Source of the DNA: a virus | Taxonomy: Duplodnaviria; Heunggongvirae; Uroviricota; Caudoviricetes | Virus record (IMG/VR): IMGVR_UViG_2529292906_000017 | Reading direction: 5' to 3' (one strand) | Length of the DNA: 18,305 nt | Shown here: positions 3,307-18,305 of the stretch, in pieces | Layout: each line of letters opens with the position of its first letter | Numbering within the stretch: the first letter of the stretch is position 1 | The notes under the pieces: model-generated | Seen by the model: the letters and a program-made list of their open reading frames with translations, nothing else | Told to the model about the DNA's origin: nothing | Databases searched by the model: none | Program-made: the position numbers and the translations under genes

Positions 3307-3882
3307 CTACGGCAGTGCTGGCCATTCAATATCCGGTGCAGTTGATGTATCAACACGGTTCAGCAACACCCGATACTTTTTCCAGGCTTCCAGCAACAAG
3401 GTTTCTTCCTCCGTTGCGATCTCCAGATCCACAGCATCCTGAAGCGGCGCTATATGCTCACTGGCTATCTGCATCAGGCTGTTTTTTGTTTCTTCCGCCT
3501 CCCGGATCCGGAACAGTTTTTCTGCTTCCGTATCCTTCACCCAGGCTGTGCCGTTCCACTTCTGATATTCCCCTCCCGGCGATAACCAGGTAACATTTTC
3601 CGGTAACGGACCGAGTTCAGAAATAAATAACGCGTCGCCGGAAGCCACGTCATAAACCGTTTTACCCCGATGATCTTCAACGAGATGCCACGATGCCTCA
3701 TCACTGTTGAAAACAGCCACGAAGCCTGCCGGAATATCTGGCGGTGCAATATCGGTACTGTTTGCTGGCAGACCTGTATGAGGCGGAATATATGCGTCAC
3801 CTTCACCAATAAATTCATTAGTTCCGGCCAGCAGATTATAAATTTTTATGGTCCGTGGTTGTTCACTCATTCTGAATGCCAT
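3307..3882 (-). CDS. tfaQ: Tail fiber assembly protein (lambda Tfa-like)
   Basis: 191-aa ORF, near-identical over its length to lambda Tfa as recalled ([24 protein letters not shown]...). Start overlaps the stop of the upstream stf fragment. Confidence 0.85.
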
Positions 3883-4190
3883 TACGCAAGCCTCACAATA
3901 TAGTTAAATGCGATGTTTTTGACGGTGTTTTCCGCGTTACCAGCAGCGTTAACGGTGATGGTATGTCCATGTGAACCAATCGCAACGGAGTGCGTATGAG
4001 CACCAATACCGACAGTATGTGCGTGTGCACCTGCGCTTGCAGCAGTACCCGATACAGAGTGCGTATGAGCGCCTGCAGAAGAAGTGTTAACACTGTATTT
4101 AGAATAATCAGGTGATCCACTTCCCGGAGCACCACTGGAACCACCTGAAACAAATGTCATCGAATGGGTATGTGCACCGGCTGTCCCCAT
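3882..4190 (-). pseudogene. stfQ: C-terminal remnant of side tail fiber protein (Stf) with GAHTHS repeats
   Basis: 102-aa ORF with repeated GAHTHS motifs, ending [11 protein letters not shown] as in lambda Stf C-terminus. Only about 100 codons remain; the upstream part is replaced by a J fragment in another frame. Confidence 0.75.
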
Positions 4191-5437
4191 GCATTTACCG
4201 CCCGGACTGTCAGCCTGTAATTTCCCAGCGCCAGCTGCGTGAAGCGATATGTGGTTTCCGTCGTCCGGGCCGTGCTGACCAACCGCTCACTGCCGTCGTC
4301 CGCTGCCACGGTCAGGCGAAGCATAAAGCTCACCCCCTTCACCACCTTCGGCGTGTCCCAGCGCGCCAGCACCTGGTATTCCCCGCTGTCTGCGGTGACT
4401 TCTGCGGTCAGGTGCTGAACTGCTGGCGGCGTGACACCATTCACCGTGCCGCTCTGGTCACCGTCAAAGTGCGCCCCGTTATCCACGATGGCTTCTTTCT
4501 CCGGTACATGCTGCACGGCAGTGATGGCATACGTACCGTCATCGTTCTCACGGATACTCACACAGCGGAACAGGCGCTGACGCAGCGTCGGCAGCTTCAG
4601 CCCCCACACGCTGTACTCGGCAACGCCGTCAGGAACCCGGCTCACTTTCACCTTCACGCCGTCGGTGACGGACTGGACCTCCACGCTCACCGGATTACCC
4701 TGCCCGTCAACCAGGCTTATCAGCGTGGTGCCGGAGGATGGCAGCGTGATTTCACGGTCGAGCGTCAGTGTCCGCGTCTGGCTGTTCACCGCCAGCACGC
4801 GCCCGCCGATGCTGATCCCCGCATAGTCATCATCACAGATTTCAATGACATCACCTGGTACATGGCGAAGCCCTTCGGCACCCACGCTGAAGTCCACGGT
4901 CTGCGTTTCCAGCAGTTCCGTTTTAATCAGCCACAGCCCGGCTCGGTGCGCCTGCCCCCGCCTGGTACAGCCAAAGGCATCCATCTTCGTGACGTTACGA
5001 CCGTAACGGGCAATGGCCTGCGTGTCCTCCACAAGCTCTGTCGCCGTCTCCCAGCCGTTATCCGGGTCAATCCAGTTCACCTCAACGGCATTATGGCGGT
5101 CCTTCAGGGCGCTGAAGCTGTAGCGGAACGGCGCGCCATCATCCGGCATCACCACATTACTGCGGTTATAGGTCCACACCTTATCTGATGGTCGGTCCTG
5201 CACGAACGTCAGCGTCTGCCCGTTCCATACCGGCATACAGCGCATCGCCGAGCAGAAATCACTGAGAACATCCCACGCCTTACGCTGTGTGGTCAGCCAG
5301 GCATTACAGGTGATGCGCGGCTCCGTGCCGCCAAAACCGTCCGGCACCGACTGGTCGCAACACTGGCCGATGACATACAGCGCCCATTTATCCACATCTG
5401 CCGCACCAAGACGTTTACCCATGCCGTAGCGCGGGTG
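4157..5437 (-). pseudogene. Internal fragment of tail tip / host specificity protein J (lambda gpJ-like)
   Basis: Translation from HPRYGMGKRLGAADVDKWALYVIGQ to [11 protein letters not shown] matches lambda J mid-region closely. The first 29 residues of the 455-aa track ORF are an out-of-frame read of Nu1 DNA, and the C-terminus diverges 7 codons before the stop. Confidence 0.8.
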
Positions 5438-5672
5438 GCTGGAGATCTGTCTCGCTGGCCTGCCGCAGTTCTTCAACTTCCCGGCGCAGCTTTTCGTTCT
5501 CAATTTCAGCATCCCTTTCGGCATACCATTTTATGACGGCGGCAGAATCATAAAGCACCTCATTACCCTTGCCACCGCCTCGCAGAACGGGCATTCCCTG
5601 TTCCTGCCAGTTCTGAATGGTACGGATACTCGCACCGAAAATGTCAGCCAGCTGCTTTTTGTTGACTTCCAT
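5415..5672 (-). pseudogene. nohQ: Terminase small subunit Nu1, N-terminal DNA-binding fragment fused into J-derived sequence
   Basis: Translation MEVNKKQLADIFGASIRTIQNWQEQGMPVLRGGGKGNEVLYDSAAVIKWYAERDAEIENEKLRREVEELRQASETDLQP matches lambda Nu1 residues 1-79; homology ends at about 5436 and the frame then reads into J DNA. Confidence 0.8.
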
Positions 5673-7560: not shown

Positions 7561-7756
7561 CTTTTTTAAATCCAACGACAGACGGCTGGCATTTAAGTAT
7601 TGTGAAATATTATCAAATGTAATCATCATTGATTTACAAAAGATACATTTTGCCCCGAAAGGATTCATGTCAGAAACATCAAAAGATGATGTTCTATACT
7701 GGGAACCATGACAACACGGGCATCTAAAGTGAATATGGTTTGTAATATTGTCTACC

Positions 7757-7969
7757 TCAAAGCGCCACTACATGAACAGCGGCAGGACCTTTAGGTCCGT
7801 TCTCAATACCAAATTCAACTTCCTGATTCTCAGTTAATGTTTTGAAATCGTTGCTCTGAATTGCTGAGAAATGGACAAACACATCTTTGCTGCCATCTTT
7901 CGGCGTGATGAAACCAAAACCTTTTTCAGGGTTAAACCATTTCACTAAACCAGTCATTTTGTTAGACAT
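7757..7969 (-). CDS. cspI: CspA-family cold shock protein
   Basis: 70-aa [41 protein letters not shown] with RNP1/RNP2-like motifs (KGFGFI, VFVHF). Confidence 0.9.
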
Positions 7970-8330
7970 AATTATTACCTTTTGAAGAAATTAGCCCTTG
8001 GGCAGAATGGTCCGAAAAAAATATCAGAGAGAAAAACCAACAAGGAAATCTCAAGAGGTACAAATAATAAAATTATAACAATGACTGCTTCAGATAAATT
8101 TGTAACAAACCAGAACACCATTAACGCATGATTAACCACCCATAGCAAGGATTACTTTTGTAAAGAAAAACACAGCAATGAAAGAATAGCTTTATTTATT
8201 AATAAAACGTGTCATTCTGATTAAGACCTTTTATCTTACCCTTAAGATTTCAGGAATTTTGGCTCATGGAAGAGTCCTTTTTATTTAAATTTTACATTCC
8301 GCGATGTAAATGTTCCGATTTAATATTACC

Positions 8331-9353
<1,023 letters not shown>

Positions 9354-9357
<4 letters not shown>

Positions 9358-9669: not shown

Positions 9670-9885
9670 TTACTCTCCTCTCGCAGCCTTACGCCTGTCT
9701 TCTTTAATCTTGAAATAAAGATTTGTCAGATACGTCAGCAGGCCAAAAACCAGGCTACCCAGCACACCGATTGCAGCCCACTGTGACGGAGTTACTTTAT
9801 CGAGTAACTGCAATGCCCAGAAACCAGCATTACCCGCCGATGTGCCATAGGCAACACCTGTTGTTAACTTATCCATTGATTTCAT
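9670..9885 (-). CDS. essQ: Class II holin (phage 21 S-like pinholin) with dual-start motif
   Basis: 71-aa product [71 protein letters not shown]; two TM helices, Met1/Met4 dual start, charged C-terminus. The track ORF 9670..9960 extends upstream. Confidence 0.85.
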
Positions 9886-10104: not shown

Positions 10105-10275
10105 ATGTCAGAACGTAAAAACTCAAAATCACGCCGTAATTATCTCGTTAAATGTTCCTGCCCAAACTGCACCCAAGAGTCAGAACACAGTTTTTCAAGA
10201 GTACAAAAAGGTGCCCTTTTGATCTGCCCTCATTGCAACAAAGTATTCCAGACAAATCTTAAAGCTGTAGCCTGA
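10105..10275 (+). CDS. Small zinc-ribbon-like protein (56 aa), unassigned
   Basis: ATG at 10105 preceded by AGGAAAAG; MSERKNSKSRRNYLVKCSCPNCTQESEHSFSRVQKGALLICPHCNKVFQTNLKAVA has CxxC...CxxC spacing. The track ORF starts upstream at 10054. Confidence 0.45.
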   Translation: MSERKNSKSRRNYLVKCSCPNCTQESEHSFSRVQKGALLICPHCNKVFQTNLKAVA

Positions 10276-10333
10276 TTGATTTTATTAGTAACAAGTATTT
10301 TTTATATTTTAATAATATATTTAAAGCAGATAA

Positions 10334-10362
10334 TAAAAAACCCGCCTGAGCGGGTTTGAGAT
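10334..10362. terminator. Rho-independent terminator-like hairpin (stronger on the minus strand)
   Basis: AAAAAA-CCCGC-CTGA-GCGGG-TTT; reverse complement gives stem plus T6. Confidence 0.45.
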
Positions 10363-10517
10363 TGTGGTGCTTTTTGTGGGAGTCATCCACTTACGCACTT
10401 TGTTTTGCCATGCCAGCAGTTAGCTTCTGCTGTAAAACTATTCATGCAGCAAACCTGCACTTCACCACAATGGTTAGCATACTTTTCCTGATTAAGATTT
10501 TGGGTAATGACTCCAAC

Positions 10518-10895
10518 TTATTGATAGTGTTTTATGTTCAGATAATGCCCGATGACTTTGTCATGCAGCTCCACCGATTTTGAGAACGACAGCGACTTCC
10601 GTCCCAGCCGTGCCAGGTGCTGCCTCAGATTCAGGTTATGCCGCTCAATTCGCTGCGTATATCGCTTGCTGATTACGTGCAGCTTTCCCTTCAGGCGGGA
10701 TTCATACAGCGGCCAGCCATCCGTCATCCATATCACCACGTCAAAGGGTGACAGCAGGCTCATAAGACGCCCCAGCGTCGCCATAGTGCGTTCACCGAAT
10801 ACGTGCGCAACAACCGTCTTCCGGAGCCTGTCATACGCGTAAAACAGCCAGCGCTGGCGCGATTTAGCCCCGACGTATCCCCACTGTTCGTCCAT
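10518..10895 (-). CDS. insB: IS1 InsB transposase domain (InsAB' C-terminal part)
   Basis: [65 protein letters not shown]... matches IS1 InsB. Confidence 0.8.
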
Positions 10896-10914
10896 TTCCG
10901 CGCAGACGATGACG

Positions 10915-11214
10915 TCACTGCCCGGCTGTATGCGCGAGGTTACCGACTGCGGCCTGAGTTTTTAAATGGCGGAAAATCGTGTTGAGGCCAACGCCCATAA
11001 TGCGGGCAGTTGCCCGGCATCCAACGCCATTCATGGCCATATCAATGATTTTCTGGTGCGTACCGGGCTGAGAGGCGGTGTAAGTGAACTGTAGTTGCCA
11101 TGTTTTACGGCAGTGAGAGCAGAGATAGCGCTGATGTCCGGCAGTGCTTTTGCCGTTACGCACCACGCCTTCAGTAGCGGAGCAGGAAGGACATCTGATG
11201 GAAATGGAAGCCAC
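10915..11214 (-). CDS. insA: IS1 InsA with altered C-terminus from a shortened A-run at the frameshift site
   Basis: [43 protein letters not shown]... is InsA (zinc finger plus HTH), but the ORF ends ...[18 protein letters not shown] (99 aa) instead of ...RHLKNSGRSR (91 aa) because TTTAAAAACTC has A5 where IS1 has A6C. Confidence 0.8.
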
Positions 11215-11413
11215 GCAAGCACCTTAAAATCACCATCATACACTAAATCAGTAAGTTGGCAGCATTACCAGATTTTGCCAAATATGCTAGCCATTGTTTC
11301 ATGTATTGGACCTCCTTACTTTTTATTAAAGAGATCCAATATTCACTACTCTGTCCGTATCTCTACTCAGGCATCAGCCTTCTTCGTTATCGTATACAGA
11401 CGAGCGATGAATT

Positions 11414-11629
11414 TTAATCAGTAATGATGACATTTGCTGCTGCAGGACCTTTAGCACCACTCTCTATAGAGAAGGTAACCTTTTGACCTTCAAATAAGGT
11501 TCGATAATTATCATTCTGAATCGCAGAAAAATGCACAAACACATCTTTACTACCATCAACAGGAGAAATAAAGCCGAAACCTTTATCAGCGTTAAACCAT
11601 TTTACTAAACCAGTCATTTTATTTGACAT
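11414..11629 (-). CDS. cspB: CspA-family cold shock protein
   Basis: 71-aa [41 protein letters not shown]..., paralogous to the ORF at 7757..7969. Confidence 0.9.
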
Positions 11630-11929
11630 TCTACATTCCTTAACTTGAGCCTTTCGGCATAAATGGTTTGCATAACAGAAACGACTTCGTACTTAATTGG
11701 AGAGACTCAAAGAAGGAATAAGTGAATAACACCTGAAATGAGAACTGCTTTAGTAAACTACTTCGTATATCGTCTGTTCTTCAAACCGACGCAATCATTA
11801 ACGCATAGTTGAACATATGAAGCAATGTTTATTTTAGACATCCAGCCATCTTCAACCCCATCAAAAAACTATAGCTTTCTTCAGGAACGTGTGTATAGTG
11901 CGCCAAGTTATCAGTATTAAGGAATTTTT

Positions 11930-12286: not shown

Positions 12287-12440
12287 TAAGCAGACTCATT
12301 GTGTTTAGGGACATTGTACTGGAAGAAAACATTTTAAACATCAGGCAAATAACCAAGTCACCAGCTAAATAATAAGTTAACAGACATGAGTCCCGGGATG
12401 AGATTCAACATTACCATTGCCCCATTTAAAGCACAAAACC

Positions 12441-12464
12441 CGCTCATCAGCGGGTTTTCTACTT
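12441..12464 (-). terminator. Terminator hairpin about 100 nt downstream of the Q gene (tR'-like)
   Basis: AAACCCGCT-CATC-AGCGGGTTTT with T-rich tails on both strands. Confidence 0.5.
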
Positions 12465-12502
12465 TTTCTTAACGTCGGGTATACAAAGCCCATCGTTGAA
12501 AA

Positions 12503-12531
12503 ATTTTATCCATATTTTTTGAAAAATGCAA
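12503..12531 (-). promoter_or_regulatory. Putative Q-dependent late promoter (pR'-like)
   Basis: On the minus strand TTGCAT (12526..12531), a 17-nt spacer, then TAAAAT (12503..12508), immediately downstream of the Q stop and upstream of the terminator hairpin. Arrangement resembles lambdoid pR'-tR'. Confidence 0.35.
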
Positions 12532-12562: not shown

Positions 12563-13315
12563 TTATCTCGTCACCTTCCTCAATTGCGCTTCCGCGTATG
12601 CTTCTTCCTGCCAGCACTTTGTTACCAGTTTACCAATGACGTCCGCATACCCCTTATACCACTGATAATCGGTCAGGTCTGGTACCAGCTTCTGGACATG
12701 ACGTCGTGCCAGCGTGGTCGGTAAACGACTAAACCGGTTTCCATTACAACGCCCACAAATCTTATATACCGGTACGCCATGAAACCGGGTTCTTTTTTCA
12801 TCCAGAACAATCCCTTTACCCTTACACCCTCTGCACGCTGTGCTGGCTTCGCCCTTACCATGGCAATGCTGACATAGTTCCTTCACCCATTCTTCCTTGA
12901 TTACAGATTCCCCGCGTCTGTAGTGTTTCACCACTTCGCGCAATACATTATAAAATCCCGTACCTGAACAATGCTCACAGCGAGCCTTACTTGCCGCAGA
13001 CCTGGAGTAATCAGCAAAGGCAAAACTCACGAGGTAAGGAATAATCTGTAACCGGATTTCTTCACTCAATTTGTTCAATGTCGGGTTATCCAGTGCCATC
13101 GCGTAATTTAGCAGGCCTTCAATCGCAAACTGAGGGTCCTGAACACCAACTTTTGCCAGAAATAAGGCCAACCCAAGTGGTGCTTTCGACTGCACCATCC
13201 CCTGCGCTGCCATTACATCCGTAATTGTTAAACAACCGGTGCCTGTCGCTGGAGCGTCATCGCTCAATTTTGGAGATTTTGGGGAGTAATATTTTGGTAA
13301 GGCTTCAAGGTTCAT
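12563..13315 (-). CDS. quuQ: Late-gene antiterminator Q (phage 82-type)
   Basis: 250 aa from MNLEALPKYY...; Cys-rich zinc-binding region CEHCSGTGF...CQHCHGKGE...CRGCKGKG...CGRCNGN. The track ORF 12563..13345 adds 10 upstream codons. Confidence 0.85.
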   Translation of the reverse strand: MNLEALPKYYSPKSPKLSDDAPATGTGCLTITDVMAAQGMVQSKAPLGLALFLAKVGVQDPQFAIEGLLNYAMALDNPTLNKLSEEIRLQIIPYLVSFAFADYSRSAASKARCEHCSGTGFYNVLREVVKHYRRGESVIKEEWVKELCQHCHGKGEASTACRGCKGKGIVLDEKRTRFHGVPVYKICGRCNGNRFSRLPTTLARRHVQKLVPDLTDYQWYKGYADVIGKLVTKCWQEEAYAEAQLRKVTR

Positions 13316-16149: not shown

Positions 16150-17037
16150 AGACACCATATACTTTGTGACGGTCTGAATCGCCACGGATAATCTAGACAC
16201 TTCCGAGCCGTTGATAATACTGGTTTTCATATTCTGTCGGTGACATCTGATCGCTGGAACCATGCCGACGCTTACTGTTATAAAACATTTCGATGTAATC
16301 AAAAATATCGCTGCGGGCTTCTTCCCGCGTTCCGTAGATCTTTTTCTTTATCCGTTCACGTTTCAACAACTGGAAAAAACTTTCTGCAACCGCATTATCA
16401 TGGCAGTTACCGCGACGGCTCATGCTACCCTCCAGGCCGTGTGATTTCAGGAACGACTGCCACTCATGGCTTGTGTACTGACTGCCCTGATCCGAATGAA
16501 CCAGCACCTTTTTTTCGGGATTACGCCGCCATACAGCCATCAGCAGTGCGTTCAGGACAATGTCCTTTGTCATCCGGGATTGCATGGACCAGCCGATAAT
16601 TTTGCGTGAGAACAGATCAACAACAACGGCAAGATACAGCCAGCCTTCGTGGGTCCTGATGTAGGTTATGTCCGTTACCCAACGCTCATCAGGAGCATCC
16701 GGATTGAACTGTCGCTGGAGCCTGTTGGGTGACACGATACTGGCCTCGCCTTTACGTGCCCGCGGGCTTCGGTATCCGACCTGAGCCTTTATTCCGACAC
16801 GTTTCATCAGTCTCCAGACTCTGTTTACTCCGCACTGTTGCCCGCTGTCACGCAGATCCAGATGGATTTTGCGATAACCATAGACGCATCCCGATTCCAG
16901 CCAGAACTGTTTAATCTGTCCTGTCAGTCTCAGGTCTGCCTGATGGCGTTGTGAATGCGGCTGCTGAAGCCAGGCGTAAAAACCACTGGGATGAACATCC
17001 AGCACCCGACAGAGCAGGCGAACAGGCCAGCAACAGG
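16150..17037 (-). mobile_element. IS600-like IS3-family element, truncated where the next IS begins; outer boundary approximate
   Basis: Contains a complete orfB; its reading frame continues open upstream to 17037, where the TGAACCGCCCCGG terminus of the next IS begins, so orfA and the other end lie outside the window. Confidence 0.7.
16193..17005 (-). CDS. IS3-family transposase OrfB (IS600-like), DDE integrase domain
   Basis: 270-aa ORF (GTG start) with ...WVTDITYIRTHEGWLYLAVVVDLFSRKIIGW...HSDQGSQYTS...CHDNAVAESFF, the DDE motif region of IS3-family transposases. Confidence 0.85.
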   Translation of the reverse strand: MLDVHPSGFYAWLQQPHSQRHQADLRLTGQIKQFWLESGCVYGYRKIHLDLRDSGQQCGVNRVWRLMKRVGIKAQVGYRSPRARKGEASIVSPNRLQRQFNPDAPDERWVTDITYIRTHEGWLYLAVVVDLFSRKIIGWSMQSRMTKDIVLNALLMAVWRRNPEKKVLVHSDQGSQYTSHEWQSFLKSHGLEGSMSRRGNCHDNAVAESFFQLLKRERIKKKIYGTREEARSDIFDYIEMFYNSKRRHGSSDQMSPTEYENQYYQRLGSV

Positions 17038-17091
17038 TGAACCGCCCCGGAAATCCTGGAGACTAAACTCCCTGAGAAAGAGGTAAACAGG

Positions 17092-17418
17092 ATGACTAAA
17101 AATACTCGTTTTTCCCCCGAAGTCCGTCAGCGGGCGATTCGTATGGTTCTGGAAAGTCAGGATGAATATGACTCACAGTGGGCGGCAATTTGTTCCATTG
17201 CCCCAAAGATTGGCTGTACGCCGGAGACTCTGCGTGTCTGGGTTCGCCAGCATGAGCGGGATACCGGGGGCGGTGATGGTGGGCTCACCACCGCTGAACG
17301 TCAGCGTCTGAAAGAGCTGGAACGTGAAAATCGTGAACTGCGCCGCAGTAACGATATCCTTCGCCAGGCTTCCGCTTATTTTGCGAAGGCGGAGTTCGAC
17401 CGCCTCTGGAAAAAATGA
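17092..17418 (+). CDS. IS3-family transposase OrfA (HTH plus leucine zipper)
   Basis: 108-aa [60 protein letters not shown]...[27 protein letters not shown]. Confidence 0.85.
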
Positions 17419-18305
17419 TGCCACTGCTGGATAAGCTGCGTGAGCAGTACGGGGTCGGACCGGTATGCAGCGAACTGCATATTGCCCCGTCAACGTATTA
17501 CCATTGTCAGCAACAGCGACATCATCCGGATAAACGCAGTGCCCGTGCGCAGCACGACGACTGGCTGAAGAGAGAGATACAGCGCGTATACGATGAAAAT
17601 CATCAGGTGTACGGTGTGCGTAAAGTCTGGCGTCAGTTGTTACGGGAAGGAATCAGGGTGGCCAGATGTACAGTGGCGCGCCTCATGGCGGTTATGGGAC
17701 TTGCCGGTGTTCTCCGGGGTAAAAAGGTCCGCACTACCGTCAGCCGGAAAACCGTTGCCACAGGTGACCGCGTAAACCGTCAGTTCGTGGCAGAACGTCC
17801 TGACCAGCTGTGGGTGGCTGATTTTACTTACGTCAGCACATGGCAGGGCTTCGTCTATGTGGCGTTTATCATTGATGTGTTTGCCGGATACATCGTGGGG
17901 TGGCGGGTCTCATCGTCTATGGAAACGACATTCGTGCTGGATGCGCTGGAGCAGGCGTTGTGGGCCCGTCGTCCGTCTGGCACCATCCATCACAGCGATA
18001 AAGGCTCTCAGTATGTGTCACTGGCCTATACGGAGCGACTAAAAGAAGCCGGATTACTGGCATCAACAGGGAGTACAGGCGACTCGTATGACAACGCGAT
18101 GGCTGAGAGCATCAATGGTCTTTACAAAGCGGAGGTAATACACCGTAAGAGCTGGAAAAACCGTGCAGAAGTGGAACTGGCCACACTAACGTGGGTGGAC
18201 TGGTATAACAATCGACGATTGCTGGGAAGGCTGGGCCATACTCCTCCGGCAGAAGCAGAAAAAGCTTATTATGCTTCCATCGGAAACGATGATCTGGCAG
18301 CCTGA
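17415..18305 (+). CDS. IS3-family transposase OrfB (IS629-like), DDE integrase domain
   Basis: 296-aa ORF with ...[31 protein letters not shown]...[10 protein letters not shown]...[16 protein letters not shown]. Confidence 0.85.

Follow-up and report, generated by a model that had tools for sequence, protein, structure and literature searches.

The stretch of DNA analysed here (the window, 18,305 nt in full) is the cryptic prophage Qin, and an ordinary, strain-specific IS1 has inserted by simple transposition in one of its intergenic spacers; we consider it likely that read-through by Q-modified polymerase is kept and that the effect is near to neutral. Elements of this kind are well known and the finding is ordinary: E. 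coli and Shigella genomes routinely carry IS1 in prophage spacers, and the insertion matters little, since it lies in a defective prophage at a site that tolerates engineered insertions. Where an insertion sequence lies between a Q gene and the lysis genes, a block of Q-modified transcription should not be assumed. The element, its ends and its genes are positioned in the window as follows.

10495-10502: left copy of the 8-bp target-site duplication AGATTTTG, which is a single copy in K-12
10503-11269, minus strand: IS1, 767 bp as recorded (canonical length 768), with IRR at the lower coordinates and IRL at the higher
10503-10525: IRR, the right terminal inverted repeat of IS1
10518-10895, minus strand: ATG-delimited part of the insB' frame, DDE catalytic domain (PF03400, 248 bits)
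10915-11214, minus strand: insA as recorded, 99 codons, GTG start
10959-10963, minus strand: A-run of the A6C frameshift motif, recorded as A5 (TTTAAAAACTC), from alignment to IS1 copies
11262-11235: promoter-like site CTGCCA-16-TATGAT
11247-11269: IRL, the left terminal inverted repeat of IS1
11270-11277: right copy of the target-site duplication AGATTTTG

The identification of the element as IS1, already made in the earlier note, is supported by its identity to annotated copies, its inverted repeats and its protein-family matches. Annotated E. coli IS1 copies align to it over the full length with 99.7% identity, and K-12 IS1A is ~96% identical (709/735 aligned bases), with the differences falling mostly within the first 300 bp. 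The terminal inverted repeats have 23-nt arms that are imperfect (83% complementary), the minus-strand frames carry the InsA domains PF03811 and PF12759 together with the IS1 DDE domain PF03400, and the NCBIfam model NF033558 (“IS1 family transposase”) matches the reconstructed InsAB' fusion with 243.8 bits against a cut-off of 100 bits. The open frame of insB' continues upstream of its ATG-delimited part as far as the A-run. The promoter-like site partly overlaps IRL, the place expected for the IS1 promoter, which is reported to overlap IRL partially (PMC12428005). In size, inverted repeats, insA/insB' layout and 8-bp target duplication the element thus has the traits of the IS1 family, and it resembles the IS1A/IS1B-type elements of E. 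coli and Shigella (~768 bp, 23-bp repeats beginning GGTAATG, an insA zinc-ribbon/HTH and an insB' DDE domain); the window copy differs in the A5 recorded in place of A6 (probably an artefact) and in occupying a site seen only in its source assembly.

The octamer AGATTTTG is exact on both sides and directly abuts the two ends of IS1, a match that two specified adjacent octamers would show by chance with a probability of ~1.5e-5. Taking out IS1 and one octamer leaves an empty site of 626 bp that matches K-12 MG1655 and all the other genomes among the matches listed with 100% identity, and 1503 records with at least 99% identity. When the window is aligned to K-12, the overlap between the two flanks is precisely this 8-bp octamer. 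IS1 target duplications are reported as 8 or 9 bp (PMC12428005). The exact duplication and the 100% identical empty site point to simple transposition without rearrangement, which is what the earlier note had read from the 8-bp repeat at the same coordinates; the comparison with IS1-free Qin-like prophages that it had proposed as a check agrees, the K-12 site having a single octamer and being otherwise identical. A past transposition event is all that the intact duplication shows. Apart from the source assembly GCA_000249595.2 (contig AIFV01000014.1), the insertion junction turned up nowhere, with no exact match among 5,426 complete E. coli genomes and none in the GTDB species representatives, so that the insertion is strain-specific and probably recent; a literature search for the accession GCA_000249595.2 returned no paper.

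On either side of IS1 the window follows K-12 Qin collinearly, with 99.6-99.9% identity; at the ydfJ-proximal end of the window the figure is 98.5%. According to the K-12 annotation, the insertion falls within the spacer of the convergent genes cspB and ynfU and breaks no annotated gene; cspB, ynfU, quuQ and the lysis genes (including essQ) are intact. The earlier note was silent on this location in the 3' flank of cspB, on Qin being already defective and on the frameshift motif being recorded as damaged. The features that frame the insertion are listed below.

8331-8753, minus strand: rzpQ, Rz-like, DUF2514, its recorded start cut short, probably by a homopolymer undercall at 8748
8824-9357, minus strand: rrrQ, endolysin (lysozyme), PF00959
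9354-9665, minus strand: ydfR (DUF1327), in the lysis cassette
9670-9885, minus strand: essQ, class II holin (PF04971, 116.7 bits)
10105-10275, plus strand: ynfU, small zinc-binding protein (K-12 annotation; PF23499, 107 bits), intact
10338-10357, called by the scan on the minus strand only: strong intrinsic terminator-like hairpin between cspB and ynfU
11398-11790, minus strand: Rfam cspA thermoregulator (cspB leader)
11414-11629, minus strand: cspB, cold-shock protein (K-12 annotation; PF00313), intact
12435-12458, minus strand: tR'-like intrinsic terminator, a hairpin and T-run directly downstream of pR'
12492-12497, minus strand: AACGAT, a -10-like sigma-dependent pause element within CAACGATGGG, invariant with lambda
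12503-12531, minus strand: candidate late promoter pR' (-35 TTGCAT, 17-nt spacer, -10 TAAAAT), from the scan and lambda alignment
12563-13315, minus strand: quuQ/ydfT, Q-lambda-family late antiterminator, 250 aa (PF03589, 181.3 bits; cut-off 26.7 bits)

The stop codon of cspB lies 136 nt upstream of IS1 in the direction of transcription. Two candidate disruptions were rejected: ynfU is not split by IS1 (it is intact on the plus strand at 10105-10275), and neither is a small minus-strand gene, the site being crossed only by an 11-codon mini-ORF and a startless ORF fragment. K-12 Qin shares the gene order quuQ-cspF-cspB-ynfU-essQ-ydfR-rrrQ-rzpQ, but it has no IS1 at this site, a different tail-gene segment at the position of 4074-5435 and no IS3-family break from 16175.

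The late regulatory module was aligned with that of lambda. The pR' candidate is followed by AACGATGGG, and its -10 region and CAACGATGGG align with lambda pR' and the pause-inducing element of that promoter. This alignment gives a precise position for the late promoter module of Qin, with the putative pR'/tR' pair at ~12531-12435, adjoining quuQ, and a hairpin homologous to tR' is annotated as a terminator in phage SfV. On sequence, then, the traits of a Q-lambda cassette are present (a Q protein, pR' with a pause element, and two terminators before the late genes), and PF03589 itself is assigned to the Q-lambda family (PMC9388147). The late path predicted on the minus strand runs through cspF (antisense), cspB (sense), the insertion site, the terminator at 10357-10338 and ynfU (antisense), and then through essQ, ydfR, rrrQ and rzpQ. 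IS1 lies on this path ~1.2 kb downstream of pR', the pause element and tR' and 0.6 kb upstream of essQ, with insA/insB oriented in the direction of late transcription. Two further statements of the earlier note are borne out by this layout: that IS1 sits between the Q/pR' region (quuQ 12563-13315, tR' 12458-12435) and the holin-endolysin genes (lysis genes 9885-8331), and that it points in the direction of transcription, insA/insB being on the minus strand like the late genes.

The lambda late cassette resembles that of Qin in having a Q-family protein, the pR' -10 region with CAACGATGGG, a terminator and then holin, endolysin and Rz on the same strand; in Qin, unlike lambda, tR' and the holin gene are separated by ~1.8 kb of “moron” DNA, which holds cspF and ynfU in antisense, cspB in sense and a second terminator, with IS1 added here, and Q dependence of the Qin cassette is predicted. 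The second terminator lies 145 nt past IS1 in the minus-strand direction, on the path of late transcription. Read on the minus strand, its hairpin is AAACCCGCTCAGGCGGGTTT followed by a T-run; on the plus strand, AAAAAACCCGCCTGAGCGGGTTT leads into GAGATTGTGG, and the stem has no T-run behind it. The phages 2H10 and PhiR42_1 (complete genomes) have the same Q-cspF-cspB-terminator-holin order without IS1. In IS1-free Qin, 2H10 and PhiR42_1, the route to the holin gene therefore already crosses tR' and this strong terminator (described as bidirectional), and the terminator-holin order shared by the two phages indicates that crossing a terminator is normal here.

This arrangement bears directly on the claim that IS1 probably uncouples the lysis cassette from Q, which the earlier note had advanced and which we do not uphold, given the Q-lambda family assignment, the pre-existing terminators and the lack of any found within IS1. 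What is said here of lysis control in Qin we infer from family membership. If QuuQ is made and loaded at pR', a terminator-resistant polymerase would cross the extra 775 bp, and the lysis genes would remain under Q, possibly at a reduced yield. A QuuQ-modified polymerase is expected to proceed through IS1 because it must already pass tR' and the cspB/ynfU terminator to reach essQ. As the resistance of a Q-loaded polymerase is high but not absolute, a partial loss of late transcription is possible. With the prophage already defective, the overall effect of the insertion would probably be close to neutral.

The alternative is that IS1 acts as a polar block, QuuQ-modified transcription from pR' ending within the element and the holin-endolysin genes losing their response to Q. 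IS1 is strongly polar in both orientations, acting through Rho, in the classical gal and lac literature, and here it lies between pR' and essQ and adds 775 bp that are mostly poorly translated. Our literature search on the Rho dependence of IS1 polarity found no relevant paper. Against a block, however, Rho-dependent polarity is the kind of termination that Q suppresses. Q-loaded polymerase has been described as deficient in both pausing and termination (PMC9388147), and Q-lambda has been called “a proven polarity suppressor” (PMC12360218). Furthermore, two intrinsic terminators already stand on the IS1-free route, including that of 2H10 and PhiR42_1, and on the minus strand of IS1 itself the terminator scan called no site of this type. 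A scan for new outward promoter-like sites at the IS1/flank junctions was likewise empty. The evidence leans against uncoupling, which we judge less likely than read-through, and a polar block at this locus appears unlikely, if deserving of consideration.

A partial parallel is offered by the defective lambdoid prophage DLP12 of K-12 (NC_000913 574591-575785), in which IS5B lies between quuD and essD-rrrD-rzpD. Its lysis cassette is still reported to be under the control of a Q-type antiterminator (PMC7918800). DLP12 differs in the IS family, in the insertion having occurred within a gene (nmpC) and in its Q gene. As the promoter region that the literature uses for this cassette falls between IS5 and essD, just ahead of essD, we set DLP12 aside as a natural test of read-through, the comparison not being a clean one.

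The likelier and more direct effect would be a local one, on ordinary transcription of cspB, whose 3' flank is the sequence that IS1 interrupts. The IS1-free flank, from stop codon to terminator (10330-10502 joined to 11278-11413, minus strand; 311 nt), is predicted to fold into three long hairpins plus the terminator at -105.2 kcal/mol, compared with -71.4 ± 3.8 kcal/mol for shuffled sequences (z = -9.0). The insertion point falls within the loop of the third hairpin, in an AT-rich target stretch. The 18-bp arms of this hairpin, obtained from an inverted-repeat finding and the fold of the IS1-free sequence, now lie on opposite sides of the element.

10467-10484, minus strand: 3' arm of the 18-bp hairpin
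11280-11297, minus strand: 5' arm of the 18-bp hairpin, now ~795 nt from its partner arm

Across the complete phage genomes found (2H10, Tritos, HannyBb, PhiR42_1 and PhiR63_1), conservation of the flank is 95-100%, and all 311 nt are uninterrupted in Tritos, HannyBb and PhiR63_1. Covariation in the hairpins could be assessed over four slightly different sequences only, which have zero two-sided changes and too little variation to be informative, and an Rfam search of the IS1-free spacer gave nothing near any gathering score. An antisense ORF annotated on this flank in some phage records is probably no gene, most substitutions among relatives altering the encoded amino acid.

The scan returned no terminator-like site in the 136 nt between the cspB stop codon and IS1, so cspB transcripts probably enter the element in the sense direction. 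Ordinary, non-antiterminated cspB transcripts would thus probably run into IS1 before reaching their normal structured 3' end and terminator; the 3' ends or the stability of cspB mRNA may change, and outside transcription may feed insA. Should cspB mRNA already end before it reaches 11277, no such effect on cspB would arise. Upstream read-through transcription is reported to raise IS1 transposition (PMC12428005). It is conceivable, and in our estimate quite improbable, that the strongly cold-induced cspB promoter transcribes insA/insB' and so makes the transposase and the transposition of this particular copy inducible by cold shock. The idea draws on IS1 lying parallel to cspB with no terminator-like site in the intervening 136 nt, and it requires both that the frameshift motif is truly A6 and that cspB transcripts are neither stopped nor processed at the two long hairpins upstream.

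The mini-ORF that crosses the insertion site (MKQWLAYLAKS, 11 codons, 11270-11302, minus strand) has a near-perfect Shine-Dalgarno sequence, AAGGAGGT, at 11310-11317, hidden within the second hairpin of the cspB 3' flank. The insertion point of IS1 coincides with the stop codon of the mini-ORF, which is thereby extended to 19 codons that end inside IRL, and this may be chance. A second Rfam cspA-thermoregulator match falls on the cspI leader (7730-8114, minus strand), and the late region of Qin thus holds several cold-shock “moron” genes.

Another reading is that the insertion was selected, through an advantage gained either from a disturbed cspB 3' region or from damping of leaky lysis expression. 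Independent IS insertions in the quuQ-essQ interval occur in E. coli EH01-18-04-A, EC06 and PT62, and the insertions seen in this interval outside the source strain include an IS200C immediately beside the cspB/ynfU terminator (~window position 10335), an IS1A inside cspB and an IS1B accompanied by deletion of cspB and upstream genes. Both this recurrence across several strains (IS200C, IS1A, IS1B) and the unusual structure of the interrupted region (the z of -9.0 given above) could be taken to favour selection. The exact insertion, however, is present in one assembly only among thousands, the prophage was already defective, and AT-rich DNA is the usual target of IS1, with 32% GC within 25 bp of the insertion site. 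Two further IS elements in the window, moreover, are consistent with a general IS expansion. These are IS3-family elements that, from 16175 onwards (16175-18305), replace the K-12 Qin sequence from inside ydfV, and they point to such an expansion in the source strain.

16193-17005, minus strand: IS3-family partial orfB
from ~17092, plus strand: second IS3-family copy, with an ALIL frameshift pseudoknot at 17373-17489

In K-12, the spacer between essQ and cspB also serves routinely as an integration site for engineered cassettes (PMC2847246); these cassettes and the IS elements of other strains are consistent with insertions here being tolerated. We regard selection for this insertion as very improbable, and a tolerated, near-neutral insertion as the preferred reading.

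That the IS1 is itself an assembly artefact, a repeat misplaced when the draft genome was closed, is scarcely credible: the assembly does have systematic homopolymer errors, and multicopy IS1 is hard for assemblers, so that several copies may have been merged into one consensus inside the element, but a misplaced repeat would not give an exact 8-bp duplication with perfectly collinear flanks, and both junctions lie inside a 700-kb contig.

The homopolymer errors do bear on the recorded state of the element. One A of the A6C motif is missing, which accounts for a recorded length of 767 bp in place of 768. In the recorded insA the last 13 codons are out of frame for want of this A, and restoring it gives the canonical 91 codons; the recorded A5C places insB' in the +1 frame, and -1 frameshifting to the transposase is prevented as recorded. 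All of the other indels relative to K-12 (8/8) are single-base losses in the window within A/T runs of at least 6, at positions 1358, 2221, 7030, 7390, 7482, 8021, 8748 and 12503. The loss at 12503 falls in the pR' discriminator (5 nt compared with 6), and that at 8748 falls just before the start of rzpQ. In other assemblies, A5 is seen on several different IS1 backbones, some of them with further indels. Given the eight homopolymer losses and the occurrence of A5 on unrelated IS1 backbones, the missing A is most likely an assembly artefact, a homopolymer undercall, and the element is probably a normal, transposition-competent IS1 of 768 bp, as judged from these sequence patterns. We had entertained A6 to A5 as a genuine inactivating mutation and downgraded it on the same two grounds. 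Were the losses real, IS1 would be unable to make transposase by -1 frameshifting, and the 5-nt pR' discriminator could impair Q loading. The assembly drops one base in long A/T runs, and it would be wrong to give the apparent frameshifts and shortenings that result (A6C, the rzpQ start, the pR' discriminator) a biological meaning.

Elsewhere in the window, an Rfam match named “IS009” at 3341-3539 was rejected as an insertion sequence, the name being that of a small RNA, and the ORF at 4157-5524 was rejected as a transposase. The segment at 4074-5435 is not collinear with K-12 Qin, where it replaces ~1 kb of K-12 sequence, and it encodes a tail-tip J-like fragment (ORF 4157-5524, minus strand; PF13550 and PF24421).
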